Source of the DNA: Escherichia coli
GTDB lineage: Bacteria; Pseudomonadota; Gammaproteobacteria; Enterobacterales; Enterobacteriaceae
DNA length: 64,000 nt
Assembly (NCBI RefSeq): GCF_016026235.1
Contig: NZ_CP065613.1
Direction: 5' to 3' (one strand)
The notes beneath the pieces were generated by a model. That model ran no database searches. It was given only the letters and a program-made list of their open reading frames with translations, and was not told the origin of the DNA. Made by a program: the position numbers and the translations under genes. Positions 18,089 through 49,321 of the stretch are shown in pieces; position 1 is the stretch's first letter; each line of letters starts with the position of its first letter.

Positions 18089-19514
18089 TAATGCCGATCA
18101 GTTAAGGATCAGTTGACCGATCCAGTGGCTGTGTAAGAATCCGGAAACGCTCACTTGTTTCCGGATTTTTTTATGCACATTGGACAGGCTCTTGATCTGG
18201 TATCCCGTTACGATTCTCTGCGTAACCCACTGACTTCTCTGGGGGATTACCTCGACCCCGAACTCATCTCTCGTTGCCTTGCCGAATCAGGTACTGTAAC
18301 GCTACGCAAGCGCCGTCTTCCCCTCGAAATGATGGTCTGGTGTATTGTTGGCATGGCGCTTGAGCGTAAAGAACCTCTTCACCAGATTGTGAATCGCCTG
18401 GACATCATGCTGCCGGGCAATCGCCCCTTCGTTGCCCCCAGTGCCGTTATTCAGGCCCGCCAGCGCCTGGGAAGTGAGGCTGTCCGCCGCGTGTTCACGA
18501 AAACAGTGCAGCTCTGGCATAACGCCACGCCGCATCCGCACTGGTGCGGCCTGACCCTGCTGGCCATCGATGGTGTGTTCTGGCGCACACCGGATACACC
18601 AGAGAACGATGCAGCCTTCCCCCGCCAGACACATGCCGGGAACCCGGCGCTCTACCCGCAGGTCAAAATGGTCTGCCAGATGGAACTGACCAGCCATCTG
18701 CTGACGGCTGCAGCCTTCGGCACGATGAAGAACAGCGAAAATGAGCTTGCTGAGCAACTTATAGAACAAACCGGCGATAACACTCTGACGTTAATGGATA
18801 AAGGTTATTACTCACTGGGACTGTTAAATGCCTGGAGCCTGGCGGGAGAACACCGCCACTGGATGATACCTCTCAGAAAGGGAGCGCAATATGAAGAGCT
18901 CAGAAAACTGGGTAAAGGCGATCATCTGGTGAAGCTGAAAACCAGCCCGCAGGCACGAAAAAAGTGGCCGGGACTGGGAAATGAAGTGACAGCCCGCCTG
19001 CTGACCGTGACGCGCAAAGGAAAAGTCTGCCATCTGCTGACGTCGATGACGGACGCCATGCGCTTCCCCGGAGGAGAAATGGCGGATCTGTACAGTCATC
19101 GCTGGGAAATCGAACTGGGATACAGGGAGATAAAACAGACGATGCAACTGAGCAGGCTGACGCTGAGAAGTAAAAAGCCGGAGCTTGTGGAGCAAGAGCT
19201 GTGGGGTGTCTTACTGGCTTATAATCTGGTGAGATATCAGATGATTAAAATGGCGGAACATCTGAAAGGTTACTGGCCGAATCAACTGAGTTTCTCAGAA
19301 TCATGCGGAATGGTGATGAGAATGCTGATGACATTGCAGGGCGCTTCACCGGGACGTATACCGGAGCTGATGCGCGATTTTGCAAGTATGGGACAACTTG
19401 TGAAATTACCGACGAGAAGGGGAAGGGCCTTCCCGAGAGTGGTAAAGGAGAGGCCCTGGAAATACCCCACAGCCCCGAAAAAGAGCCAGTCAGTTGCTTA
19501 ACTGACTGGCATTA
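18089..19514 (+). mobile_element. insertion sequence IS4 (1426 bp) with 18-bp imperfect terminal inverted repeats
   Basis: terminal IRs TAATGCCGATCAGTTAAG (18089..18106) and CTTAACTGACTGGCATTA (19497..19514); single DDE transposase ORF; 12-bp direct repeats; length equals canonical IS4. Confidence 0.9.
18173..19501 (+). CDS. insG: IS4 transposase InsG
   Basis: ORF 18155..19501; start taken at [12 protein letters not shown]4-family DDE transposase. Confidence 0.85.
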
Positions 19515-22860: not shown

Positions 22861-23553
22861 TCAGAAGAAATACTTCGTCCCGATACGAATCTGGTTTTGC
22901 TCGCGGTGGTACGGTTCCACGTTGCGATCTAACCAGCGCAATTCAATATAGGGCAGCCAGTGCTCGTTAATGCGGTAACGGAAGGTGTTAGTGATTTCCC
23001 AGTGATGCTTCGTGCCATTGCCGCTATTGAAATCATTAATGTTATAAAAATAATGCGGCTCAAAGGTATATGAGAACTTATCGGTAATAATAAAGTTCCA
23101 GTAGTTGCCAATCTCGTAGCTGTCATTATTATCCAGATCACCGTTTAAATCGGTTGAGCTGTAGTTATTATGGTTAAAACGGTTGCGTACTGTCAGGTTA
23201 AACCACGGAGTAAATTTGTAGTTAACATCCAGATAAACAGCACCACCCGAACCGATACTCTTATCATTAATTAAGCCACCGGGCTGGATGGTTAATTTAT
23301 CGGTTGGTTTAAATAACGGATACCAGCCTTCAATTTCGTTATATCCATGTTTAAGTTCATCTTCTCGCTGAAAGGTGTAGGTATTGGTTAACATAATACC
23401 CGCGCCCATATCGAAGTTATAACCCACACGTAGCATAACCTCGCCCTGATCGGAGGCGAGATTATATGCCTCCCTGTTTTCGACGTATGCGCCAGCGAAT
23501 ACTGAGGCAGAGGTCAGAGAAGATAATAAAATTATTGCATTAATATTTTTCAT
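22861..23553 (-). CDS. ompL: outer membrane porin OmpL
   Basis: ORF 22861..23619; start taken at MKNINAIILLSS signal peptide; beta-barrel with C-terminal KYFF. Confidence 0.85.
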   Translation of the reverse strand: MKNINAIILLSSLTSASVFAGAYVENREAYNLASDQGEVMLRVGYNFDMGAGIMLTNTYTFQREDELKHGYNEIEGWYPLFKPTDKLTIQPGGLINDKSIGSGGAVYLDVNYKFTPWFNLTVRNRFNHNNYSSTDLNGDLDNNDSYEIGNYWNFIITDKFSYTFEPHYFYNINDFNSGNGTKHHWEITNTFRYRINEHWLPYIELRWLDRNVEPYHREQNQIRIGTKYFF

Positions 23554-23619: not shown

Positions 23620-25023
23620 TTATAACGTTACGGAAGCCGTTTTTTCTTCTGTCGCCATCTCTTTATTTTTGCGTTGGTTGATTTCCTCAATAATCAACGC
23701 AAACCGTTTTTCATTGAGTGTGTAAAAGAATCCCATCGTCAATGCAGCAATAATTGCCAGTGCACAAGGCCAGATAAAAATGAGCTGACGCAAACCCTGT
23801 AATGTCGCATCACTTTGCGCGATGTTGGGAACATAACCGATTTGCGTCAGCATAATGCCTGGCAAGAAGCCAGCAAGTGCGGCAGAAATTTTACGAAAGA
23901 AGGTATAACCGGTATAAACAGAACCTTCGGCACGAATACCGGTTTTCCATTCACCGTAATCTACGGTATCTGGCACCAGTGCCCAGTTCAGGCTGTTTAC
24001 AAAGGCCGTGCCAAAAAAGGCGATACAAGAGAACATGACGAAAGTGAAAGAGTTACTTCCCCAGAAATAATTCAGGATATCACCCACTGCCCATAGCACC
24101 ATGCCAGCTAAATAAACCTGTTTTTTACCAAAACATTTTACAGTTAATGGCACCAGTAATACGCCGATGAGGATGCATCCCATACTGAAGAATCCCATCC
24201 ACGACAATAAATTAATATCATTCAGCACATACTGGGTGTAATAGACCTGAATCGCCAGTTTGATATTAAATGCCGCCAGGGTACACAAGTTAGCAATGCA
24301 TAAAACCAGCAATGGCGGATTCCGAAATATCGCGCAAAATGATTTGAGAATACTGGCTTTATGTCCGGTTGGTGCTGTGTCCACATAATGCTCTTTGACG
24401 CCTCTGTAGCACAGCATCATAAAAATAAAGCCACCAATGGAGAACATCAGTGCCGCACAGGCATAACCGACGGTTGAGTCAGAAAAAAGCGACTGCAACG
24501 GAATAAACGCCACGGTACAAATCAATAGCCCTATGGTTGCACCACCCTGGCGGTAAGCCGCGAGCTGCGCGCGCTCATTCGGGTTTTTAGTAATGGCTGG
24601 GATCATCGCACCATACGAGCAGTTCATCAGACTGTATGAAAGTCCAAACATCATAAACAGCGCGGTGGCAATCGTCGTTTTAACCGGCAAACTAAAAGTG
24701 GTGGCGATAAACTGGAGCGTTGCAATTAACGCCGCCGGAACCGCTGCGTATAAAATAAAGGGACGAAATTTGCCTTTAGGCCCAATATTTTTCCGCGAAT
24801 CGAGTAAAAATCCGGTGAGCATATCGGTAAACGCGGTAAAAAACTTCGCCACCAGAAAGATAATCCCGCCATAGTAAGCTGGCATCCCTAATTCATCGGT
24901 ATAAAATTTGAGGAGATACAGAGTACCGATGCTAAGCATTAAATTCGAACCAACGTCGCCCATACCATAGGCGATTTTTTCCCGCAGATTCAGTTTTAAT
25001 GTCAGTGGATTATGGTCAGACAT
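23620..25023 (-). CDS. yihO: GPH-family sugar (sulfoquinovose) transporter YihO
   Basis: ORF 23620..25029; 12-TM Na+/melibiose-type permease; paralogous to adjacent yihP. Confidence 0.88.
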   Translation of the reverse strand: MSDHNPLTLKLNLREKIAYGMGDVGSNLMLSIGTLYLLKFYTDELGMPAYYGGIIFLVAKFFTAFTDMLTGFLLDSRKNIGPKGKFRPFILYAAVPAALIATLQFIATTFSLPVKTTIATALFMMFGLSYSLMNCSYGAMIPAITKNPNERAQLAAYRQGGATIGLLICTVAFIPLQSLFSDSTVGYACAALMFSIGGFIFMMLCYRGVKEHYVDTAPTGHKASILKSFCAIFRNPPLLVLCIANLCTLAAFNIKLAIQVYYTQYVLNDINLLSWMGFFSMGCILIGVLLVPLTVKCFGKKQVYLAGMVLWAVGDILNYFWGSNSFTFVMFSCIAFFGTAFVNSLNWALVPDTVDYGEWKTGIRAEGSVYTGYTFFRKISAALAGFLPGIMLTQIGYVPNIAQSDATLQGLRQLIFIWPCALAIIAALTMGFFYTLNEKRFALIIEEINQRKNKEMATEEKTASVTL

Positions 25024-25065: not shown

Positions 25066-26451
25066 TTACGCCGTGCGTTTACGGGCTTCTATTTCTTCAA
25101 CAATGCGGACATACATCTTCTCGTTCAGGCTGTAGAAGCAGCCCATCGCCACAATGGTGACTACCGCCAGTGCGCTTGGGTAGATGAAGATCAGCTGGCG
25201 CAACCCTTCAATGGTGTGGTCAGCCTGCGCCACGTTCGGCACATAACCGATTTGCGTCAGCATCCAGCCGGGGAAGAAACCAGCCAGCGCCTGAGACACT
25301 TTGCGAAAGAAGGTGAAGCCGGTGTAGACCGTTCCTTCCGAACGAACGCCGGTACGCCACTCGCCGTACTCGACGGTGTCGGAAACCAGCGCCCAGTTCA
25401 GGCTGTTAACAAACGCTGAGCCGAAGAATGCCAGGCAGGAGAACGCCACGAAGCTGACCGAACCGCCGCCGAAGAAATAGTTGAGCAGATCGCCCAGCAC
25501 CCAAATCAGTAGGCCGCCGATATAGACCTTCTTCTTACCAAAACGCCTGACTGCGCCAGGCATCAGGAACACACCGATGAAAATACAGCCCATGCTGAAA
25601 AATCCCATATATGACAACAGGATGGGATCGTTAAGCACGTACTGGGTGTAATAGACCTGAATGGCGAGCTTGACGTTAAACGCCCCTAAAGTGCAGAGGT
25701 TGGCAATGCACAAAATGAACAGTGGGCGGTTACCGGCAATTGCGCGGAAAGATTGCAACAGGCCTGGCTTTTGCGCCGGATTGGTAGGTTGGGTTTCGAC
25801 ATAACGCTCTTTCACGCCCGAATAGCAGATCCACATAAACAGCAGGCCAAACAGTGAAAACAGCGTGGCGGCGAAGATATAGCCAAGTTGTTGATTACCC
25901 TCGATAAGATTCATAACCGGCACGAATCCCACCGTGCACAGCAGCAGGCCCAGCGTAGCGCCGCCCTGACGCCATGCTGCCAGCGAGGCGCGTTCGTTGG
26001 GGTTTTTGGTAATGGCGGGAACCATTGCGCCGTAGGAGCAGTTCATCATGCTGAAAAACAGCCCGTAGAGCATAAACAGAATAGTGGCCATCACCGTTTT
26101 ACCAGTGACATCGAACGGTGTGCCGATAAAGTTAGCGATTGCCAATAAGGTGACCGGGAATGACGCGTACAAAATGAAAGGGCGGAACTTACCTTTCGGG
26201 CCAATCTTACGCCGGGAATCCAGCATGATGCCGGTTCCCATATCGGTAAAGGCGGTAAAGAATTTCGAGATCAAAAAGATAATGCCGCCATAGGTGCCAG
26301 GTAGCCCCAGAACGTCGGTATAAAACTTCAAAAGATAAAGCGTACCAATATCCAGCAGGATGTTAGAGGCCAGATCGCCGATACCGTAAGAGAGTTTCTC
26401 TTTAAAGGGCAGGCGCAAAGTTGCCGGATCTTCCGTTGTGATGTGACTCAT
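25066..26451 (-). CDS. yihP: GPH-family transporter YihP
   Basis: ORF 25066..26484; strongly similar to YihO (e.g. IGTLYLLKFYTD, IGPKGKFRPFILYA); exact start uncertain. Confidence 0.85.
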   Translation of the reverse strand: MSHITTEDPATLRLPFKEKLSYGIGDLASNILLDIGTLYLLKFYTDVLGLPGTYGGIIFLISKFFTAFTDMGTGIMLDSRRKIGPKGKFRPFILYASFPVTLLAIANFIGTPFDVTGKTVMATILFMLYGLFFSMMNCSYGAMVPAITKNPNERASLAAWRQGGATLGLLLCTVGFVPVMNLIEGNQQLGYIFAATLFSLFGLLFMWICYSGVKERYVETQPTNPAQKPGLLQSFRAIAGNRPLFILCIANLCTLGAFNVKLAIQVYYTQYVLNDPILLSYMGFFSMGCIFIGVFLMPGAVRRFGKKKVYIGGLLIWVLGDLLNYFFGGGSVSFVAFSCLAFFGSAFVNSLNWALVSDTVEYGEWRTGVRSEGTVYTGFTFFRKVSQALAGFFPGWMLTQIGYVPNVAQADHTIEGLRQLIFIYPSALAVVTIVAMGCFYSLNEKMYVRIVEEIEARKRTA

Positions 26452-26496: not shown

Positions 26497-28533
26497 TTAG
26501 ATGTTTTTTAACGAGGCGAACAGTGCAGCCCATTCGCTGTCGGCGCGATAAAAGACCGGCGGCTTGCCGATGGGCGCTTCAACAGTTATTTCTCCACCGT
26601 GGAAGGTTTCTCCGGTCCAGGCGTGGACCCAGTTATCCTCTGGCAGATAGAGCGTCCAGTCGCTACGACCTTCTTCGTGTACCGGAGCAACCAGAATGTC
26701 GCGACCTAACAGGTACTGATATTTCAGGGAATAGGTCTGCGCGTCGTCTTCGTAATGCAGGAACAGCGGGCGCATAACCGGCAGGCCGGACTTCGCATTC
26801 AGCGCGACGGCCTCTTTCAGGTAAGGTTTCAGGGTGGTGAAGACGGTGGTCATACGGGCGAAATGGGCGATGGTTTCCGCGTCGCCGTCAAACTGCCAGT
26901 TGTCGCTAGGACGGTTACCTTCGTGGGTGCGCATCATCGGCGTGAAGGCGCTGAAATCGCACCAGCGCAGCAGCAGCTCTTTGCTGCGCTTCATCTCAAA
27001 CAGGGTGGTATAACCGCCAATGTCGCTGTGATGCAGGCCATGTCCGGTCATTGCCAGAGATAGCGCCGCCGGGACAACCGACGCCAGGCCATCGTCCAGA
27101 CTCCAGTCCACGTTCTGGTCACCCGCCCACATCATGGTGGAGTATTTCTGGCTACCGGTAGAACCGGCGCGCATAAAGAAGAGGATCTCGCCGAGCTTGC
27201 CCGTTTCTTCAAGGGCTTCGTAGTTACATTTCGCCCACAGCGCGGGCCAGGCGTTATGCATAATTTCCGCGCTGATGCCGTTATGCAGGTACGTGTCGGT
27301 GGGCAGATACTCGCCGAAGTCAGCCATCCAGCCGCCGCAGCCGAGTTCAATCATGTTCTTTTTGATAACTTCCTTGAACTAGGCGTAGGCTTCCGGATTG
27401 GTGAGATCGACAACGCCGCCGTAGAACTCGCCAAACTCCACCAGATAGTCGCCACCGGCGACATCTTTTGCCAGATAACCGCGCTTTGCCGCCTCTTCGC
27501 AGAGATCTTTATCACTGGCAACATACGGGTTGATATAGGCAAGGAACTGCACGCCCTCTTTGTTCCACTGCTTGATACGCGAATCCAGTTGCGGGTAGTT
27601 TTCGCTGTTCCACTTCCAGTTCCACATCACGCGTTTGCCAAAAGAGGTCATACGAATACCGGACCAGTCCTGCGCCCAGATGCCGTTGACCTTCACGCCC
27701 GCGTTACGCATGGTGTCCAGTTTCTTCTGGCACACTTCCGTCCCGCCCTGAATGCCGAGCGTTACTCCGTCATAAATCCAGTCGGGCAGTTCTGGCTGGC
27801 GTCCCAGCAGGGCGGTTAATTTTTCCAGCAGGGAGATGTATGTGTCAGCACATTCAAAACGCAGCGTTGCTTTGTCTTCCCACAGCGCCAGTTCATGGTA
27901 TTCTGGGGCACTAAAGTCGAAGTTCATATAGCAACTGTTATCAACATGGCAGTAATACTTCTGCGTGCTGACAAACGTAGGCTGTGGGAAGAAAGTCCAG
28001 TAATAGTCGCCGCCCGCATTTTCTTTGCAGTCGGCCTGCCAGGTGACATAGGTTTGTTTGTTGCGACCAACGCCTTGTTCACTGGTCCATAGCGGGAACG
28101 GTTTGCCACGCAGATCGAAGTAGGAAAACTGTTCGCCGCAGCCGTAGATATGGTCCTCTGGTTGAGCGGCAAGGCGCAGCCAGATACGGTTGTGGTTAAG
28201 GTTGTCGTTTTGTAGTTCCAGCAATAAACGGCCCTGATCGTCGGCAGAGATATTCAGCGTGGCGCTAATGTCAGAACCACGGCTGAAATGGATTAACCAA
28301 CCATCCGGCGACTGGCTGACGATGGCGTCGGTAAGCGCAATTTTCTCCTGTAGTTTATCTTTAATGCTGAAATTGCCGCGGAACATATCGATATCCGCAA
28401 TACCTGAACCAATCCATAAACAAGGATTATCTTTGCTATGGGTTAAAATAAGACGCTGTTGAAAATGTAGGGTAAAACTGTCGTTATTCTGATGAAACTG
28501 AAAATCTGGTAATTGTGGGCGTGGCGTATCCAT
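26497..28533 (-). pseudogene. yihQ: sulfoquinovosidase yihQ (GH31 alpha-glucosidase family) interrupted by in-frame amber codon at 27379..27381
   Basis: two ORFs (27379..28533 and 26497..27354) lie in the same frame separated only by TAG; flanking translation ...LTNPEAYA*FKEVIKKNMIELG...; total length 678 codons equals intact YihQ. Confidence 0.8.
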
Positions 28534-28641: not shown

Positions 28642-29517
28642 TTATTTACTTTCTTCAGCCCGGCGGATTGCCGCCACTTTTTTACCAAATGCCAGTTGCA
28701 GTATAACTAACAAGGTAAAAGGAGGCAGAAGCGCGGCAGCAGCGGGAATTCCCAGCGCGCCTTTTATCAACATAGAACCGGAGGCAATCAGCAACAAAAA
28801 GACCATCACACGGAACACTTTGACTGAAATGCGTTTATGCACATATTGTCCAACCAGTGAACCGAGGATCATGGTGGGAATACAAAACAGCACCAGTTTA
28901 AAGATAGAAACAGTCAAAATTCCGCTGGTCGCCAGCCCGCCGATCACCGCGATGTTGTTTGCGGTGAAGAAAGCGTTCAGAGTGCCACGAAATGCCGCCG
29001 GGCCTAAGTTACGCAGCATACCGTAGATAACCATCGGCGGTCCGTTGGTTGAAAACGCTGCCCCTAACGCTCCTGCCACAGCGCCGATAGGTGCGGCGAT
29101 CCAGTTGCGGTCATAAATCGGCAGGCGTGGAATAAACATACTGTAAAAGGAGTACAGGATAAGGAATCCGCCTAAGCCCACTTTCATAAAATGGTCGGGT
29201 AAATATGACAGCGCATATAAACCGACGGGTATTCCCAGAAACGAGAAAATAATCAGTACCATTGCCGATCGCCAATCCGTTTCTTTACGTGACAGCCAGG
29301 TGGCGTACAAGGCGGTCGCGGTGCCGACAATCACCGAGAGCGGAGTTGCCATTTTTACGGGGAGCATTAACGTGACGAGCGGCATGGTGGTTAAACCACC
29401 GCCAAATCCCGCGCATATCCCCACAAAGGTATAAAGAAACATTAACGCGATAACGATACATACCACGTTTGTTTCCAGCATGACCCCATCCGGTGAAAAT
29501 AACGTAAAAAAGTCCAT
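28642..29517 (-). CDS. TauE/SafE-family (DUF81) membrane permease, putative sulfonate/sulfite-type anion exporter
   Basis: 291-aa polytopic ORF with glycine-rich motifs typical of TauE family (GFGGGLTT, GAVAGALGAAF); lies between yihQ and yihR. Confidence 0.7.
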   Translation of the reverse strand: MDFFTLFSPDGVMLETNVVCIVIALMFLYTFVGICAGFGGGLTTMPLVTLMLPVKMATPLSVIVGTATALYATWLSRKETDWRSAMVLIIFSFLGIPVGLYALSYLPDHFMKVGLGGFLILYSFYSMFIPRLPIYDRNWIAAPIGAVAGALGAAFSTNGPPMVIYGMLRNLGPAAFRGTLNAFFTANNIAVIGGLATSGILTVSIFKLVLFCIPTMILGSLVGQYVHKRISVKVFRVMVFLLLIASGSMLIKGALGIPAAAALLPPFTLLVILQLAFGKKVAAIRRAEESK

Positions 29518-29577
29518 GATATTCCCTGTTGTGTAAATACAACCCTAAACAATGATCTCGTTCTTTTCTTAATAAAA

Positions 29578-30480
29578 TTAATTGTGCTGCCCGTAAATAT
29601 TAAAAAACAGGCGGTGCGTTTTCCCTGGTTCCAGTAATAATAAGTCGAGACCTGAATTAAAGGCGTTAGGTGGGCAACTCATAGGTTCAACTGCCAGTCC
29701 CTGACGCTGTAATTTTTCGCCGCTATAAATCTGCACCCAGGGTTGATCGGAACAAAGGCTTACCGAAAGCGCCTGTTGTGGATGGGTAATGGTTATTTCC
29801 CACAGATCATTAGCGGTTTTAAAGGTGTGGTCGATTTTTGTCGCGGCTATTTTTTTCGCCTGCGTGAAATTTAAATCCAGCTCATCAACGTGGTGAAGCG
29901 TTGTCGGATTAGCGTGCTCATCGACGGCATAAACCTGGTTTGCCGGAAGCTGGAACAGATATTCATCAACAGATGTTAAGTTGCAGGTTAAATAAGGATG
30001 AATACCCACACCATAGGGTGCGGTCACAGTACCAATATTCTGACTTGCGATCTCAACGGAAAGACCCGTGCGTGCATTGAGCGAATAAACAACCTGCGAA
30101 GCCAGCATAAACGGATAGCCGTAACTGGGCGGCAGAAAAGCTGTCAGGGTAACGCTGGTGGCGGTTAATTCGCTGATTTGCCAGTCACGCCAGGCGAGCA
30201 GCCCATGAATAGCGGCTTTTGAACCATGTTCATTAATGGGTAACTGATATTCCTGCCCCTGATAGCGATAACAGCCGTTGGCGATCCGGTTCGGCCACGG
30301 AATAAGGACTTTGCCCAGATGTGCCAGCGGCATCTCTTCGGGTTTATGCGGAATAACTAAATGACAGCCCTGAAAGGTTAATTCAGCCAGACCTGCACCG
30401 ACGGTCACAATGGTCGCGTGATAATCCCCCGCGGCAAGTGAAACGGTCTGTCCACTGCAATGCATGTTGGTGATTTGCAT
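29578..30480 (-). CDS. yihR: aldose-1-epimerase family protein YihR (sulfoquinovose mutarotase)
   Basis: 300-aa ORF, galactose-mutarotase-like; synteny. Confidence 0.85.
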   Translation of the reverse strand: MQITNMHCSGQTVSLAAGDYHATIVTVGAGLAELTFQGCHLVIPHKPEEMPLAHLGKVLIPWPNRIANGCYRYQGQEYQLPINEHGSKAAIHGLLAWRDWQISELTATSVTLTAFLPPSYGYPFMLASQVVYSLNARTGLSVEIASQNIGTVTAPYGVGIHPYLTCNLTSVDEYLFQLPANQVYAVDEHANPTTLHHVDELDLNFTQAKKIAATKIDHTFKTANDLWEITITHPQQALSVSLCSDQPWVQIYSGEKLQRQGLAVEPMSCPPNAFNSGLDLLLLEPGKTHRLFFNIYGQHN

Positions 30481-30548
30481 ACGAGGTACCTTTATTGAAT
30501 AACGACATACCCGGCGTGCAGCCTGATATGTCGTTTTTTGTTAGTCAG

Positions 30549-31790
30549 TTATTTCGCGTTAATATCCAGCAGACCCGCCGCAACTGCCGGAGCCAAGCCT
30601 GGCGCTAACGGGATACGCGGGATCACCAGGCAATGCAGCAGGTGATAAATATCCTGTTTGCCGTCCCAGACTTTGGTGGTGACCTTATTGTCCGCATCCA
30701 GCTCCTGCCACCAGGAACCATTTTCATAGTCCATCAGGTACTTAATGCAGTACTCCCACCATGTTTGATACCAGGTTTCATACTGGCGATCGCCAGTGAC
30801 GGTGTAGAGCGCGTAGGCCGTACCCATTGCTTCGACGATAGGCCAACGTACACGTTCGCGGACCACCGGTTTTCCTTCCCAGTCAACGGTATAAACAATC
30901 CCGTCCGCGCCATCGGGTGCCCAGGCATCGCGCACGGTGGCGTTAAACAGACCTTTGGCATCTTCTAGCAGCCATGCTGGTGGTTGTTCGCAACGGGCTT
31001 CCAGGGCAGCATGGATGTGCAGCATTAAACGGCCCCATTCGATCCAGTGGCCTGGTGTACCTCCGAACGCGCGGAAGCGATGCGCCGGGTTATCTTTGTT
31101 GTAATCCGGCAGCGGATTCCACTGGGTATCGAAGTGTTCGTTAACGCGATAATGATTATTTCTGGCGACGTCGTGGATAATCACGGAAGCCACGCGAATC
31201 GCGCGATCCAGCCATTTTTTGTCGTGAGTGACGTCATAAACAATCAAGAAAGCTTCCACCGCGTGCATATTGGCATTGCCGCCGCGGTACTCTTCGGTTT
31301 TGCTGAAGGCTTCGTCCCAGGATTCCAGGCACATCTGCTCTTCTTCGCTCCAGAAATATTTCTCGATAATTTCAATGGTGTAATCGAGCAGCTTGCGCGC
31401 TTCCGGGTGACCCGTTGTGACGGCGCTGGCGGCACCCAGCAGAGCAAAGAAGTGTTGATAGCCCTGTTTGGAGGCATCCACCACGCCCTCGTCATTCACG
31501 CAGGCATACCAGCCGCCATATTTTTTATCACGCAGTGCGCCGTTCATGGCTTTGATACCGTGATCAACCAACGAGTAAGCGCCAGGTCGACCCATCGCCG
31601 CAGCAACGGAATAAACGTGCAACATACGAGCGGTGATCCACAGATGGGTGCCCATCTCTTCTTTGATTTGCCCTTTATTGCCTAACCAGCCAAAACCAGT
31701 CGGCACTACGGAATTTTTACCAAAATCAAAGATGCGGTCGGTTTCCTGTTCCAGCCAACGGTTGTGGCTTAGGGTGTTAAACCATTTCAT
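30549..31790 (-). CDS. yihS: sulfoquinovose isomerase YihS (N-acyl-glucosamine 2-epimerase fold)
   Basis: ORF 30549..31805; start approximate. Confidence 0.88.
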
Positions 31791-31806
31791 TCCTTTTATC
31801 CTCATC

Positions 31807-32685
31807 TTAGCGGCGTTTAGCCATCATTTCGTCGACGATATCGCCAAGTTGTTGTAATTTCGGTGCGCAAACGTCACGCAGCATCAGCTCGTTGTCTGGT
31901 AAACCGACGACCGATGCCCAGACTGCACGGCCTGCCAGGAATCCCGATGCGCCCGCCGTCATTGCCACGCGTACGGCACGCGGGAACAGTTTTTCGTCGA
32001 CACCGGAAGAGAGGATCACCCATGGCATATTGATATGGTCATTCAGACGTTGTGAAGCACAGAGAAGCTCTTGTTGCGAACCTTTGCCATAAAGCGGCAT
32101 TTCAACTTTGTAGAGGTCAGCGCCACTGTCGCCCAGCTCTTTGGCGGCATCGATGATCGCTTGTTCGCGATCGAATTTATCGCCACGACGCGGTGGGCGG
32201 ACGACTGGCTCAATGATGCTTACCAGACCGTGTGAGTGGCACAGTTCGTTGAACTCTCTCACCATATCCAGACGTTGCTGCGCATCTTCATCACTACGCC
32301 ACAGCACCAGCAGTTTTAAGGCTTTGCCACCGTCTTGTTTGATCTGTAGCGGATTGATTTTGCGGTCAATAACCACGCTATCGACCGGAATACCGTTGCC
32401 AGGAATGAACTCATCGGCGGCGACAATCATGGCGCAACTTTTGGCAATCGCGTTTTGCTCAACCACCTGGCGGTAGCAGAATTGTTGATCTACCAGAATC
32501 GCCGAGGCATAAGGCGAGAGGGCCTTTGCAGCGTTAACTTTGAAATCAGTTAAAACGCTATCGGCTACCGGAGCGGGTGCCCCAGCCGCGGCAAACATCA
32601 TGCGCATGGCTTCGCGCTGATCGACCGCCAGCATGGCAAAACCGCCCGATGCGCGCGTAATGTCGTTGATGGTGTACTTACTCAT
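31807..32685 (-). CDS. yihT: 6-deoxy-6-sulfofructose-1-phosphate aldolase YihT
   Basis: 292-aa ORF, class I aldolase (tagatose-bisphosphate aldolase-like). Confidence 0.88.
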
Positions 32686-32708
32686 TCATTTATTCCTTTA
32701 TCCAGTCG

Positions 32709-33605
32709 TTACATTTTTACTTTGGCAGTCATCCCGGCACTGACACGGACCTGTTCCAGAATGGCGGACCAGTCCTGGCGACCGCGACCCGCTGCGCGCG
32801 CCTGGCTATAAACCTCCCGTGAGGCGGCCCCCAGCGGCATTGGCACATGCAGCTGGTTGGCGACATCAAGGGCGATGCCAAGATCCTTATGGGCAAGATC
32901 GATCATGAAGGCGGGAGAAAGATCTCCGCTGAGGACTTTGTTTGGCCAGGAAGTGGTGAAGTGACCTTTACCGGCGGCGGTACCGCTCATCACTTTGACG
33001 GCAACATCGAAGGGAAGATTCAGGGCTTCGCACAAAACGGCGGCTTCTGCCGAAAGCGCATTGAGCGCGATGCTCATGTAGTTGTTGATGAGCTTAACGC
33101 GGATCCCCATGCCCGGACCGCCAGCGTTGATCAACTCACTGCCCATCGCCATCAGGATCGGTGTGGCACGTTCAACTTGTTCAGCGGTGCCGCCAGCCAG
33201 CAGTAACAGAGTACCGGTAATGGCATTTGCAGAAGTACGGCCTACCGGAACATCCATCATGCTGAAGCCTTTGGCTTGCATATCGGCAATCAATTTATCG
33301 GTTTGCAGCGGATGGATGGTGGACATATCAATGACCAGCGCATCGGTAGATAAGCCTTCGCAAACGCCGTTTTCACCGAACAACACGTTGCGCACCAGAT
33401 CGCCATTCGGCAACATGGTAATGATAAATTCGGCATCTTTAGCGGCCTGCGCCGGGTTGGCGGCGGGAGTCGCACCTTTGTCTACCAGATGCCGCACAGC
33501 TTCGGCGTTCACATCAAAGACGCGAAGTTGATGCCCTTGCTGCAATAAATTGCTCGCCATTGGCGAACCCATTTGTCCTAAACCGATAAACGCGATTGCT
33601 GCCAT
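32709..33605 (-). CDS. yihU: 3-sulfolactaldehyde reductase YihU (3-hydroxyisobutyrate dehydrogenase family)
   Basis: 298-aa ORF with N-terminal Rossmann motif [10 protein letters not shown]. Confidence 0.9.
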
Positions 33606-33772
33606 AACCCTCTCCTGAATACAGTGATGTCACTTTTTGTCATTTATGACATGCTTTTCTTGTCTGTTTTTGATCGTATTTGTAATTTATCGTCAAAAAA
33701 TTGACAGCCGTCACTTTTTAAACAATTGGTGAAATTAAAATGAACGCATCCCAAAATGTTTAAGGAATGACC

Positions 33773-34669
33773 ATGATTCGTGTTGCTTGTGTAGGTATAA
33801 CCGTGATGGATCGCATCTATTACGTGGAAGGGTTACCGACGGAGAGCGGTAAATACGTGGCGAGAAATTATACGGAAGTTGGTGGCGGGCCAGCGGCGAC
33901 GGCAGCGGTTGCGGCGGCAAGGCTGGGGGCGCAGGTCGATTTTATTGGTCGCGTAGGTGATGACGACACGGGCAACAGCCTGCTGGCAGAGCTGGAATCC
34001 TGGGGCGTTAACACCCGTTACACCAAACGGTATAACCAGGCGAAATCTTCGCAATCCGCCATCATGGTGGATACCAAAGGCGAGCGGATAATCATTAACT
34101 ACCCCAGCCCGGATCTGCTGCCTGACGCAGAGTGGTTGGAGGAAATTGATTTCTCTCAGTGGGATGTTGTGCTGGCAGATGTACGCTGGCACGACGGCGC
34201 TAAAAAAGCCTTCACCCTGGCCCGTCAGGCGGGTGTGATGACCGTTCTGGACGGGGACATTACGCCGCAGGATATCAGTGAGCTGGTGGCATTAAGCGAT
34301 CACGCGGCCTTTTCAGAACCGGGTCTGGCGCGCTTAACGGGCGTGAAAGAGATGGCCAGTGCGCTAAAACAGGCACAAACGCTCACAAATGGTCATGTCT
34401 ATGTGACCCAGGGTAGCGCAGGCTGCGACTGGCTGGAAAATGGTGGGCGTCAGCATCAACCGGCCTTCAAAGTTGATGTGGTAGATACCACAGGTGCGGG
34501 TGATGTTTTTCACGGCGCTTTGGCGGTGGCGCTGGCAACAAGTGGGGATTTAGCGGAGTCAGTCCGCTTCGCCAGCGGTGTAGCGGCGTTAAAATGCACA
34601 CGCCCCGGTGGACGAGCCGGGATCCCTGACTGTGATCAAACCCGATCTTTTTTGTCACTTTTTGTATAA
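33773..34669 (+). CDS. yihV: 6-deoxy-6-sulfofructose kinase YihV (PfkB/ribokinase family)
   Basis: ORF 33767..34669; PfkB signatures (DTTGAGDVFHGA). Confidence 0.9.
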   Translation: MIRVACVGITVMDRIYYVEGLPTESGKYVARNYTEVGGGPAATAAVAAARLGAQVDFIGRVGDDDTGNSLLAELESWGVNTRYTKRYNQAKSSQSAIMVDTKGERIIINYPSPDLLPDAEWLEEIDFSQWDVVLADVRWHDGAKKAFTLARQAGVMTVLDGDITPQDISELVALSDHAAFSEPGLARLTGVKEMASALKQAQTLTNGHVYVTQGSAGCDWLENGGRQHQPAFKVDVVDTTGAGDVFHGALAVALATSGDLAESVRFASGVAALKCTRPGGRAGIPDCDQTRSFLSLFV

Positions 34670-34702
34670 AATGCCAGGGTGATGGTATTTCGAGGAATTT
34701 TC

Positions 34703-46270: not shown

Positions 46271-49200
46271 TTACACCTTTTCCACATTCACAAGGAAGGA
46301 CTTAAACTCCGGCGTCTGCGTGTTCGCATCACCAACGAATGGCGTTAACGTATTGGCAATAAAGCCTTTTTTAGCTACGCCTTCATAACCCCAGTGAATC
46401 GGAATACCGATGGTATCGATATCTTTGCCGTTCGCTTTCAGCGTGCGAATACGTTTGGTCACCACCGCTTTGGCCTTGATATAGCCACGGTTGGAGGAGA
46501 CTTTCACGGTATCGCCCTGGGCAATGCCAAGTTTATTCGCCAGCGACTCCCCGATTTCCACAAACTGCTCTGGCTGCAAAATCGCGTTCAACAGCGCGTG
46601 TTTGGTCCAGTAGTGGAAGTGCTCGGTCAGACGATAGGTGGTTCCGACATACGGGAACTTATCGGCTTTACCCAATGCTTCGGCGTCGTCTTTAAAGATA
46701 CGTGCAGCCGGGTTCGAGATAACGTTTGGATGCAGCGGGTTAGTTCCCAGCGGCGTTTCAAACGGCTCGTAGTGTTCCGGGAACGGACCTTCCGCCATCT
46801 TATCGAGGGCAAACAGACGCCCCATGCCTTCCTGCTGCATGATAAACGGCCCGACGCCGCTGCCCGGAGGCGCTGCGCTGTAGTCCGGAATATCCCAGCC
46901 GGTCCACTTAGTGCCGTCCCATTTCAGCAACTGACGCTTCGGATCCCACGGGTTACCCTGCGGATCTGCGGAGGCGCGGTTATACAGAATGCGGCGGTTA
47001 AGCGGCCATGCCCATGCCCAGCCCAGCGTGTTACCGAGGCCAGACGGATCGGCGTTATCACGACGCGCCATCTGGTTGCCTTCCGGCGTCCAGCTACCGG
47101 CGAAAATCCAGCAACCACAGGAAGTTGTACCGTCATCGCGCAGTTGGGCGAACGAGCTAAGTTGTTGGCCTTTCTTGACGATAACCGCACCGGTTGCCGG
47201 ATCGGTAATATCGGCCAGCGCCTTACCGTTACTCTCCATCGCCACTTCTTCTGAAGATGGCTCATGCGGAATGGCGTAGTTCCAGGTCATGTTCAGCACC
47301 TGGTCCGGGTTCGCGCCACCCTGTTCGGCATACATCTTGCGCAAGCGCAGGAAGATACCGGAGAGGATCTCGCCGTCAGTCAGCGCAATCCCCGGGGCGT
47401 CCGCACCTTTCCAGTGCCACTGTAACCAGCGACCTGAGTTAACGATAGAACCGTTCTCTTCCGCGAAGCAGGTCGATGGCAGACGGAACACTTCGGTCTG
47501 GATCTTCGACGAGTCAACTTCGTTCAGCTCACCGTGGTTCTGCCAGAAGTTAGAGGTTTCAGTGTTCAGCGGGTCGATGGTGACGAGGAACTTCAGTTTC
47601 GACAGACAACCGATCACTTTGTTTTTGTTCGGGAATGAGGCAACAGGGTTAAAGCCCTGGCAGATATAGCCATTGACCTTGCCCTCTTTCATCATCTCGA
47701 AGTATTGCAGGACGTCGTAGCCTTTATCCCACTTCGGCAACCAGTCAAAGCCCCAGCTATTTTCCGCCGTCGCTTTATCACCAAAGAAGGCCTTCATCAT
47801 AGAGACGAAGAATTTCGGGTAGTTGCCCCAGTAGTTTACCTGGCCTTCCAGCAGCGGTTTTGGCGTGTTGGCGGTAAGGTAGGTTTGCAGATCGGTCTGC
47901 TTCTCGCTTGGCAGCGTCATGTAACCTGGCAGGCTCTGCGACAGCAGCCCCAGGTCCGTCAGCCCCTGAATATTGGAGTGACCGCGCAGGGCGTTAACGC
48001 CGCCGCCAGCCATCCCCATGTTACCGAGCAGCAGCTGGATCATCGCCATCGTACGAATGTTTTGCGCACCAACGGAGTGTTGCGTCCAGCCGAGGGCATA
48101 CAGGAACGAGGCAGTTTTATCGTGAGCACTGGTTTCTGCGATGTATTCGCAGACTTTCAGGAACGCGTCTTTTGGCGTACCACAGATGTTTTCAACCACA
48201 TCTGGCGTGTAGCGGGAAACGTGCTGTTTCAGCAAGTTCCACACGCAGCGCGGATGTTGCAGCGTGGTATCGCGTTTGGCGAAGCCGTTTTCGTCCAGTT
48301 CATAAGTCCAGGAGGATTTATCGTACTTGCGTTTTTCCGCGTCGTAGCCGGTGAACAGGCCATCTTCAAAGCCGTAATCCTCACGCACGATCAGGCTGGC
48401 GTTGGTATAGGCTTCGGTGTATTCGCGGTTGAATTTTTCATTGTTCAGCAGGTACAGCAATACGCCTGACAGGAAAGCAATGTCAGTACCGGAACGAATA
48501 GGGGCATAGTAGTCAGCCACCGCCGCCGTACGCGTAAAGCGAGGATCGATCACAATCAGCTTCGCGCCATTGTGAATTTTGGCTTCCATCGCCCAGCGGA
48601 ACCCGACCGGGTGAGCTTCAGCGGCGTTACCGCCCATCACCACGACGAGGTTGGCGTTCTTGATGTCGACCCAGTGGTTGGTCATCGCACCGCGACCAAA
48701 TGTTGGAGCAAGACTTGCTACCGTTGGTCCGTGTCAGACACGCGCCTGGTTGTCGACCGCGAGCATACCCAGCGCGCGGGAGAATTTTTGCGTTAAATAG
48801 CCGGTTTCGTTACTCGACGCGGAAGCACACAGCATCCCGGTGGAGAGCCAGCGGTTAACAGTCACGCCTTCGGCGTTTTGCGCAATGTAGTTAGCATCGC
48901 GGTCTTCTTTCATCAGTTTGGCGATGCGATCAAACGCCTCTTCCCAACTGATTTGCTGCCATTTATCAGAACCTGGCGCACGGTATTCCGGAAACTTCAG
49001 ACGGCTTTCGGAGTGGATGAAATCCACCAGGCCAGCGCCTTTCGGACAAAGTGCACCGCGGTTGACCGGGTGATCCGGATCGCCTTCGATATGGAAGATA
49101 GATGCTTTGGCGTTTTTTGCTCCGTCACCGAGGCTGTACATCAACAGCCCACAGCCTACGGAACAATAGGTGCAGGTATTACGGGTTTCGCGGGTGCGCA

Positions 49201-49321
49201 GCAGTTTATACTGCCGGGTTTCCGCGAGTGCTACGCTGGGTGCAAAACCCAGTGCCGCTGCCGTGGTGCCTGCCATACCGCCAGCGCAGATCTTAAAGAA
49301 CTGCCTTCTGCTGACCTGCAT
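46271..49321 (-). CDS. fdoG: formate dehydrogenase-O catalytic subunit (selenocysteine-containing molybdoenzyme), Tat signal peptide
   Basis: ORFs 48734..49321 and 46271..48685 are co-linear in one frame, joined through a single in-frame TGA at 48734..48736 (Sec196); RRQFFK twin-arginine motif at N-terminus; total 1016 codons. Confidence 0.93.
48690..48733 (-). promoter_or_regulatory. SECIS stem-loop for selenocysteine insertion immediately 3' of the fdoG UGA
   Basis: mRNA-sense UGA-CACGGACCAACGGUAGCAAGUCUUGCUCCAACAUUUGGUCG forms a hairpin with GCAAGUCUUGC apical region, resembling the fdhF/fdnG SECIS. Confidence 0.7.

Follow-up and report, generated by a model that had tools for sequence, protein, structure and literature searches.

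The yihQ gene in the window, the whole 64-kb stretch of Escherichia coli DNA that was analysed, is very probably a true pseudogene in which a plus-strand C-to-T change at position 27380, originating at a Dcm site, converted codon 385 from TGG (Trp) to TAG and abolished function. It is an ordinary lineage-specific nonsense pseudogene of a kind already known, and RefSeq has already flagged the same lesion in strain ERL04-3476. The gene, which encodes a GH31 sulfoquinovosidase, lies on the minus strand at 26497..28533 and comprises 678 codons plus TAA, with one internal amber codon.

The Amber Codon in yihQ

Minus-strand translation of 28533-26497 shows codon 385 as the sole internal stop among 679 codons, in the context '...LTNPEAYA*FKEVIKKNMIELGCGGWMADFGEY...'. 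The codon occupies 27379..27381 on the minus strand and reads CTA on the plus strand, where the surrounding sequence is TGAACTAGGCGT. In the six-frame ORF list, two minus-strand ORFs share one frame. The first, of 384 aa (27379-28533), yields the N-terminal product of residues 1-384 (27382..28533), and the second begins at M394 and encodes 285 aa followed by the stop (26497-27354). Translation and ORF list reproduce the context quoted in the initial annotation, which had described a single in-frame TAG splitting a 678-aa yihQ. Its assignment of the gene as yihQ, a GH31 sulfoquinovosidase, also holds: PGAP-annotated yihQ genes match, and the nearest solved structures are those of E. coli YihQ, 5AED/5AEE, whose chains are matched over residues 1-678 by the intact allele of strain 203740, nearly identical to the window yihQ.

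The split gene aligns to annotated yihQ genes over 2037 nt with no gaps and with 99.4-99.8% identity. A chance pattern of open reading frames was rejected because this identity to intact yihQ extends over the full length. The intact yihQ of O157:H7 strain PV15-279 is equal in length to the window gene, aligns to it with zero gaps, and has TGG at codon 385, as do all of the intact E. coli yihQ alleles compared; the wild-type coding-strand context, GCCTGGTTC, was read in loci L002, L003, and L013-L015. Alignment to these alleles confirms the earlier proposal that the ancestral codon is TGG for Trp and that a single transition separates it from TAG, namely a coding-strand G-to-A substitution at 27380 (plus-strand C to T). 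A 784-nt query spanning the lesion matched 3892 complete E. coli genomes, with 100% identity in one and 99.9% (one mismatch) in the others listed, and a 61-mer centred on the TAG had an exact match in 1 of the 620 genomes where seeding was possible. As in a nonsense pseudogene, the stop stands where orthologues carry a sense codon, and the frame is otherwise kept.

A second in-frame stop within a conserved enzyme gene occurs in the same window, the selenocysteine TGA at codon 196 of fdoG. The two differ in that the fdoG TGA is also present in the reference orthologue, which is annotated as one coding sequence, whereas none of the intact yihQ alleles compared has the TAG. Because it is missing from those alleles and replaces a conserved Trp, the TAG is best read as a mutation rather than as recoding. 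The TGG of the orthologues excludes selenocysteine- or pyrrolysine-type recoding.

Recurrence of W385* on Four Haplotypes

The W385* TAG was found on four yihQ haplotypes, designated A-D. Haplotype A comprises the window and three loci from public assemblies (L006, L007, and L012) and is nearly identical over 13 kb to strain FDAARGOS_943, which has TGG. Haplotype B (L005 and L008-L011) is nearly identical over 14 kb to strain 203740, which likewise has TGG; its yihQ differs from that of strain 203740 by the TAG alone. Haplotype C is represented by the O157:H7 strain ERL04-3476, and haplotype D by a single locus (L016) that is 99 nt divergent, with differences on either side of the TAG, at 20 nt upstream and 13 nt downstream. 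Because these differences flank the TAG so closely, recombinational import is practically excluded, and judged from its flanks the haplotype D stop certainly arose independently. Haplotypes A, B, and C differ very little in the 0.5-1 kb that flanks the TAG, so short-tract recombination may have spread it among them. The comparison of A and B for shared descent is made uninformative by a conserved 4-kb stretch that is also common to intact alleles.

The gene is present in 3909 of the 5426 complete RefSeq genomes, and ERL04-3476 is the sole case of W385* among them. Its locus, D8Z68_RS27645 on NZ_CP032808.1, is marked by PGAP as a pseudogene on account of an 'internal stop', and it shares with the window the affected codon, the TGG-to-TAG change, and intact yih neighbours. 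Its allele is of the O157:H7 type and differs from the window yihQ by 15 nt. A further change distinguishes the window lineage, in which codon 543 is AGC and not the GGC of all other alleles (G543S, nonsynonymous and downstream of the stop).

The initial annotation had mentioned neither the Dcm context of the mutated base, nor the recurrence of the lesion on other backgrounds, nor the RefSeq pseudogene flag in another strain.

Probable Origin of the Lesion at a Dcm Site

The lesion replaces the inner C of a CCWGG site with T. On the plus strand, positions 27379..27383 read CTAGG in the window and CCAGG in the ancestral sequence, and the altered base, 27380, is the inner methylated C. Sites of this type are recognised hot spots in E. 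coli for G:C to A:T changes through deamination of 5-methylcytosine, and most E. coli carry dcm and vsr. In the probable course of events, Dcm-methylated C27380 would have deaminated directly to thymine, converting TGG to TAG at codon 385. A deamination hot spot would also explain why the same TAG appears on several unrelated yihQ backgrounds.

A precedent exists in lacI, where Coulondre, Miller, Farabaugh and Gilbert reportedly described amber hot spots at CCAGG Dcm sites in 1978. In both genes, conversion of the inner methylated C of CCWGG to T makes a TAG and recurs at one site across lineages. The geometry differs, however: the lacI change converts CAG to TAG on the coding strand itself, whereas in yihQ it is the antisense strand that bears the methylated C, and TGG becomes TAG. 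The evidence also differs in kind, as that for lacI comes from a mutation screen and that for yihQ from natural isolates.

The yihQ gene contains five Dcm sites, four of which lie in the xCC-TGG frame, such that the corresponding transition would give W165*, W385*, W429*, or W639*. For the commonest allele, the exact proteins truncated at these four Trp codons and at 17 of the 22 Trp codons outside Dcm sites were looked up in public contigs. The Dcm-site truncations were found on 11, 21, 7, and 11 contigs, respectively, as compared to 41, 2, 2, 8, 5, 0, 0, 0, 1, 2, 5, 0, 0, 2, 11, 1, and 2 contigs for the others (median 2). The difference between the two sets of counts, which are confounded by clonal sampling and contig ends, has a one-sided Mann-Whitney p value of 0.008. 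Inspection of the DNA in public assemblies shows that all true stops at W165, W385, W429, and W639 are TAG, as predicted. Most of the 41 'W149*' contigs merely end at that residue, and the true W149 stops are TGA; contigs that end at the site in question and carry no true stop include, besides most W149 matches, L017-L019, L024, L026, L038-L040, L044, L049, and L053-L056. True stops also recur at two other Trp codons outside Dcm sites: W252* and W626* are each found as TAG on two haplotypes, and W626* additionally once as TGA.

These observations bear on the main alternative, which we regard as possible but clearly less probable: that this is the same pseudogene produced by an ordinary replication or damage error, with the Dcm context coincidental and the recurrence a product of huge sequencing effort combined with weak selection on yihQ. 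The repeated nonsense alleles at W252, W626, and W149 are consistent with such an origin, as are truncations of other kinds, including Q315* on 23 contigs and an IS1 insertion in the yihQ of strain 1506. Mutation-accumulation data, in which only a minor part of the G:C to A:T transitions falls at CCWGG sites, point the same way. Against it, each of the four Dcm Trp codons is truncated on at least 7 contigs and always by TAG, as compared to the control median of 2, and W385* occurs on four backgrounds. Taken together, the contig counts and codon identities give modest support to a Dcm hot-spot effect at yihQ. Because Trp codons outside Dcm sites also recur and the counts reflect clonal sampling, we take Dcm causation as probable and the Dcm context as shown. 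The gene offers a small natural example of how, in Dcm-positive bacteria, a CC-TGG codon stands ready to become amber; this is textbook chemistry and raises no new question.

Loss of yihQ across E. coli

Other disrupted forms of yihQ exist in public data, among them frameshifted forms of 466 aa. A short cassette, yihTUVW, that lacks yihQ occurs widely, for example in E. coli Nissle 1917, and is associated with pathogenic strains (PMC12608037). Nissle 1917 thus resembles the window lineage as a natural E. coli without a sulfoquinovosidase. The routes are different: in Nissle 1917, ompL-yihOPQRS is deleted or replaced, whereas in the window a point mutation hits YihQ alone and the transporters, mutarotase, and isomerase are intact. 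On the evidence of these genomes, yihQ is dispensable in nature. A literature search for a described yihQ pseudogene returned nothing relevant.

Such varied losses could also mean that yihQ knock-outs are selected in some niches, for example where free sulfoquinovose is released by others or where the cost of the pathway is avoided. The many independent routes to loss, which span nonsense alleles, frameshifts, IS1, and the short cassette of pathogenic strains, would be expected in that case. However, the alleles are each rare (W385* in 1 of the 3909 complete genomes with yihQ), none was seen to be dominant, and neutral decay of a dispensable gene fits the pattern equally well. We consider adaptive loss improbable. 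A more specific proposal, which we rate as slightly less probable still, is that recurrent W385* and the other knock-outs mark positive selection for a 'scavenger', in which sulfoquinovose import and the sulfo-EMP pathway are kept and Dcm sites act as off switches, or that partial read-through gives a low, tunable level of enzyme. If the scavenger proposal were true, it would imply reliance on sulfoquinovose freed by other gut bacteria.

Consequence for the YihQ Protein

In E. coli YihQ, D405 is the catalytic nucleophile, D472 is the general acid/base, and Q288, R301, W304, and Y508 are sulfonate-binding residues. Counting positions in the translation places Q288, R301, and W304 upstream of the stop and D405, D472, Y508, and H537 downstream. 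The nucleophile is encoded by GAC at codon 405 (27319..27321, minus strand), 20 codons past the stop, and the acid/base by codon 472 (27118..27120, minus strand), within the motif MMW469-A-G-D472. The earlier statement that the stop precedes the catalytic residues is therefore correct for both. The 384-residue product comprises the N-terminal beta-sandwich and the beginning of the barrel, with neither catalytic Asp; Pfam assigns Gal_mutarotas_2 and Glyco_hydro_31_2nd to the identical 384-aa product in public contigs. Downstream of the stop, 293 codons remain, and a product starting at M394 would be without Q288, R301, and W304. Because the stop precedes D405 and D472 and the M394 start follows Q288, R301, and W304, neither fragment has a complete active site, and the sulfonate-binding residues R301/W304 and the catalytic pair D405/D472 are no longer on one polypeptide.

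Read-through of the TAG would restore a full-length enzyme with Gln, Tyr, or another residue at position 385, either by an amber-suppressor tRNA (supE, supF, or similar) or by high natural read-through. The downstream frame is fully preserved, as this would require, though the same is expected for any recent nonsense mutation. A tRNA scan of the 64-kb window found no tRNA gene. Natural isolates seldom carry suppressor alleles, and RF1 terminates efficiently at a UAG with U as the next base. All four distinct sulfoquinovosidase sequences with solved structures conserve W385, and the enzyme may not tolerate another residue there; in addition, the G543S change downstream of the stop hints at relaxed constraint. 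Since several unrelated lineages carry the allele, each of which would need its own suppressor, and since W385 is invariant, amber suppression is quite unlikely.

A two-piece enzyme, in which translation restarts at M394 and fragments 1-384 and 394-678 come together non-covalently as an active (beta/alpha)8 barrel, is less likely again and hardly credible. The M394 ATG is in frame 9 codons past the stop, and gene callers predict its ORF separately, alongside that of the N-terminal half, in public contigs. The sole Shine-Dalgarno-like motif, AAGGAAG, lies 14 nt upstream of the ATG, however, which is poor spacing, and as judged from this context the M394 ORF probably receives little or no translation. 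The assembled barrel would lack residues 385-393 and with them the conserved W385. Other nonsense alleles split YihQ at quite different places, suggesting plain decay, and no precedent for a split GH31 enzyme was found.

Returning to the loss-of-function pseudogene, the arrangement of active-site residues predicts that release of sulfoquinovose from sulfoquinovosyl glycerol or lipid would be lost in this lineage, and use of free sulfoquinovose could persist via YihO and the sulfo-EMP enzymes. In addition, about 880 nt of untranslated mRNA may cause Rho-dependent polarity on yihP-yihO-ompL; a promoter and terminator scan around yihQ-yihP gave no signal relevant to polarity that exceeded the shuffle background. 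The predicted phenotype is that the lineage, including the NCTC isolate of assembly GCA_900449985.1, would fail to grow on sulfoquinovosyl glycerol or sulfolipid and may grow on free sulfoquinovose. This prediction is relevant to those who use such strains for sulfoglycolysis or gut-diet work.

The Sulfoquinovose Cassette and Its Neighbourhood

The 52 annotated genes of one close complete genome were mapped onto the window. One of them, mobA, falls outside the window, and rhaR runs off its end; the remaining mapped genes are full length, ungapped, and without internal stops, with the exceptions of yihQ and fdoG. The ompL-yihOPQRSTUVW cassette is complete and syntenic, and every cassette gene but yihQ is intact. 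Downstream of yihQ on the minus strand, yihP (25066-26451), yihO (23620-25023), and ompL (22861-23553) each give a gapless, stop-free match. On the other side, within 28642..35488, the mapped annotation places an intact TauE-like gene, yihR, yihS, yihT, and yihU on the minus strand and intact yihV and csqR on the plus strand. The initial annotation had described the other sulfoquinovose genes as intact, and this is upheld for yihR, S, T, U, and V, csqR, yihO, yihP, ompL, and the TauE-like gene.

Two insertion sequences, IS4 (18089-19514) and IS1397 (42118-43549), are intergenic. Together with whole-genome matches of at most 98.7%, they raised the idea of a decaying Shigella genome, which was rejected on the grounds that the window has about 50 other, intact genes and that a protein of a near-identical assembly is named E. 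coli. There is, on the mapped gene set, no general genome decay in this region. A neighbouring 614-aa ORF gave no matches in Pfam, NCBIfam, or PADLOC.

Occurrence of the Allele in Public Assemblies

The best match of a 24-kb portion of the window among the 5426 complete RefSeq genomes is 98.7%, and by this measure the window lineage is absent from that set. The exact 384-aa product is nevertheless indexed in 35 blocks of a public assembly collection. At least 24 contigs with this product, from independent NCBI and Logan assemblies, were read, and the protein look-up gives 21 contigs. All eight loci shown carry the identical split into 384 and 285 aa. One of these loci, L006, is the 4.56-Mb contig of the PacBio NCTC assembly GCA_900449985.1, which has 0 mismatches and one 1-nt gap relative to the window over 21,155 nt. 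Two further loci show 0 differences across 10,890 nt (L012) and 3 differences across 15,708 nt (L007). The window haplotype is thus represented by the PacBio NCTC assembly and by several independent Illumina-based Logan assemblies.

The initial annotation had allowed for a sequencing or assembly error, with a true base of G, and this is refuted by the identical truncated product in many independent assemblies: recovery of the same allele across several technologies and laboratories, and of the same stop on other haplotypes, leaves an artefact with practically no probability.

GenBank lists the two halves of the gene from the NCTC isolate as two proteins, STM03236.1 and STM03240.1, under the name 'putative glycosyl hydrolase'; the former is the 384-aa protein of L006 and is named as E. 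coli. Annotators should be aware that split yihQ halves have been deposited in this form as separate proteins.

In-frame stop codons in fdoG and yihQ

Two genes in the window are divided by an in-frame stop codon, and they are contrasting cases. In fdoG, which encodes the formate dehydrogenase-O alpha subunit (46271-49321, minus strand), a TGA at 48734-48736, corresponding to codon 196, divides the gene into mechanically called ORFs of 195 and 804 aa. The reference genome has a TGA at the same codon, within a single annotated CDS. The fdoG TGA is the selenocysteine codon, a truly recoded stop, in contrast to the TAG of the sulfoquinovosidase gene yihQ.

Some short-read or metagenome contigs terminate at, or 1-2 bases short of, the base that is mutated in yihQ nonsense alleles. 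Within yihQ, these ends lie at nt 1154 (locus L019), nt 494 (loci L024 and L026), and nt 755 (locus L053). Such termini could arise from assembly-graph branching caused by TGG/TAG mixtures inside the samples.

Other features of the sulfoquinovose cassette

The repressor gene csqR (yihW) was compared between the window, where its counterpart occupies 34703-35488, and the NCTC E. coli assembly GCA_900449985.1 (locus L006, 3045-3831), in which it is called as two ORFs of 172 and 95 aa. The sole difference between this assembly and the window across 21 kb is one 1-nt gap, which probably falls in csqR. The split may stem from a homopolymer miscall in long reads, or the repressor gene may be truly frameshifted in that assembly's strain.

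An intact gene encoding a TauE/SafE-family, sulfite-exporter-like protein lies between yihR and yihQ (28642-29517, minus strand), within the cassette. It was found in every related locus examined, and the published ten-gene cassette list omits it (PMC12608037).

Damage to the cassette other than the yihQ TAG was also observed elsewhere. In strain 1506 (NZ_CP059288.1, hit H99), yihQ is interrupted by IS1A, and in strain FDAARGOS_943 (NZ_CP065615.1, locus L013, 12981-14051), the window's closest TGG relative at the yihQ locus, ompL is split by IS1.

Insertion sequences and the fabY-yiiE interval

A 1426-bp IS4 element, encoding a 448-aa IS4-family transposase (NF033592), lies between typA and yihL (18089-19514). 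Its flanks overlap by 12 bp, a sequence feature that suggests target duplication. The insertion is common to the window and the NCTC assembly and is missing from the haplotype-B loci, which carry the same yihQ TAG on another background, and from the closest complete genomes. A second element, of the IS3 family (1432 bp, 42118-43549), lies between yiiF and fdhE and is 99.9% identical to annotated IS1397 copies; the yiiF-fdhE interval of the closest complete genome is without an insertion.

Between fabY and yiiE, where gene content varies, lies a 614-aa ORF (38853-40697, plus strand) with zero matches in Pfam, NCBIfam, and PADLOC. Its counterpart in strain AHM8C212RI, shortened by a transposase, is annotated as a hypothetical protein.
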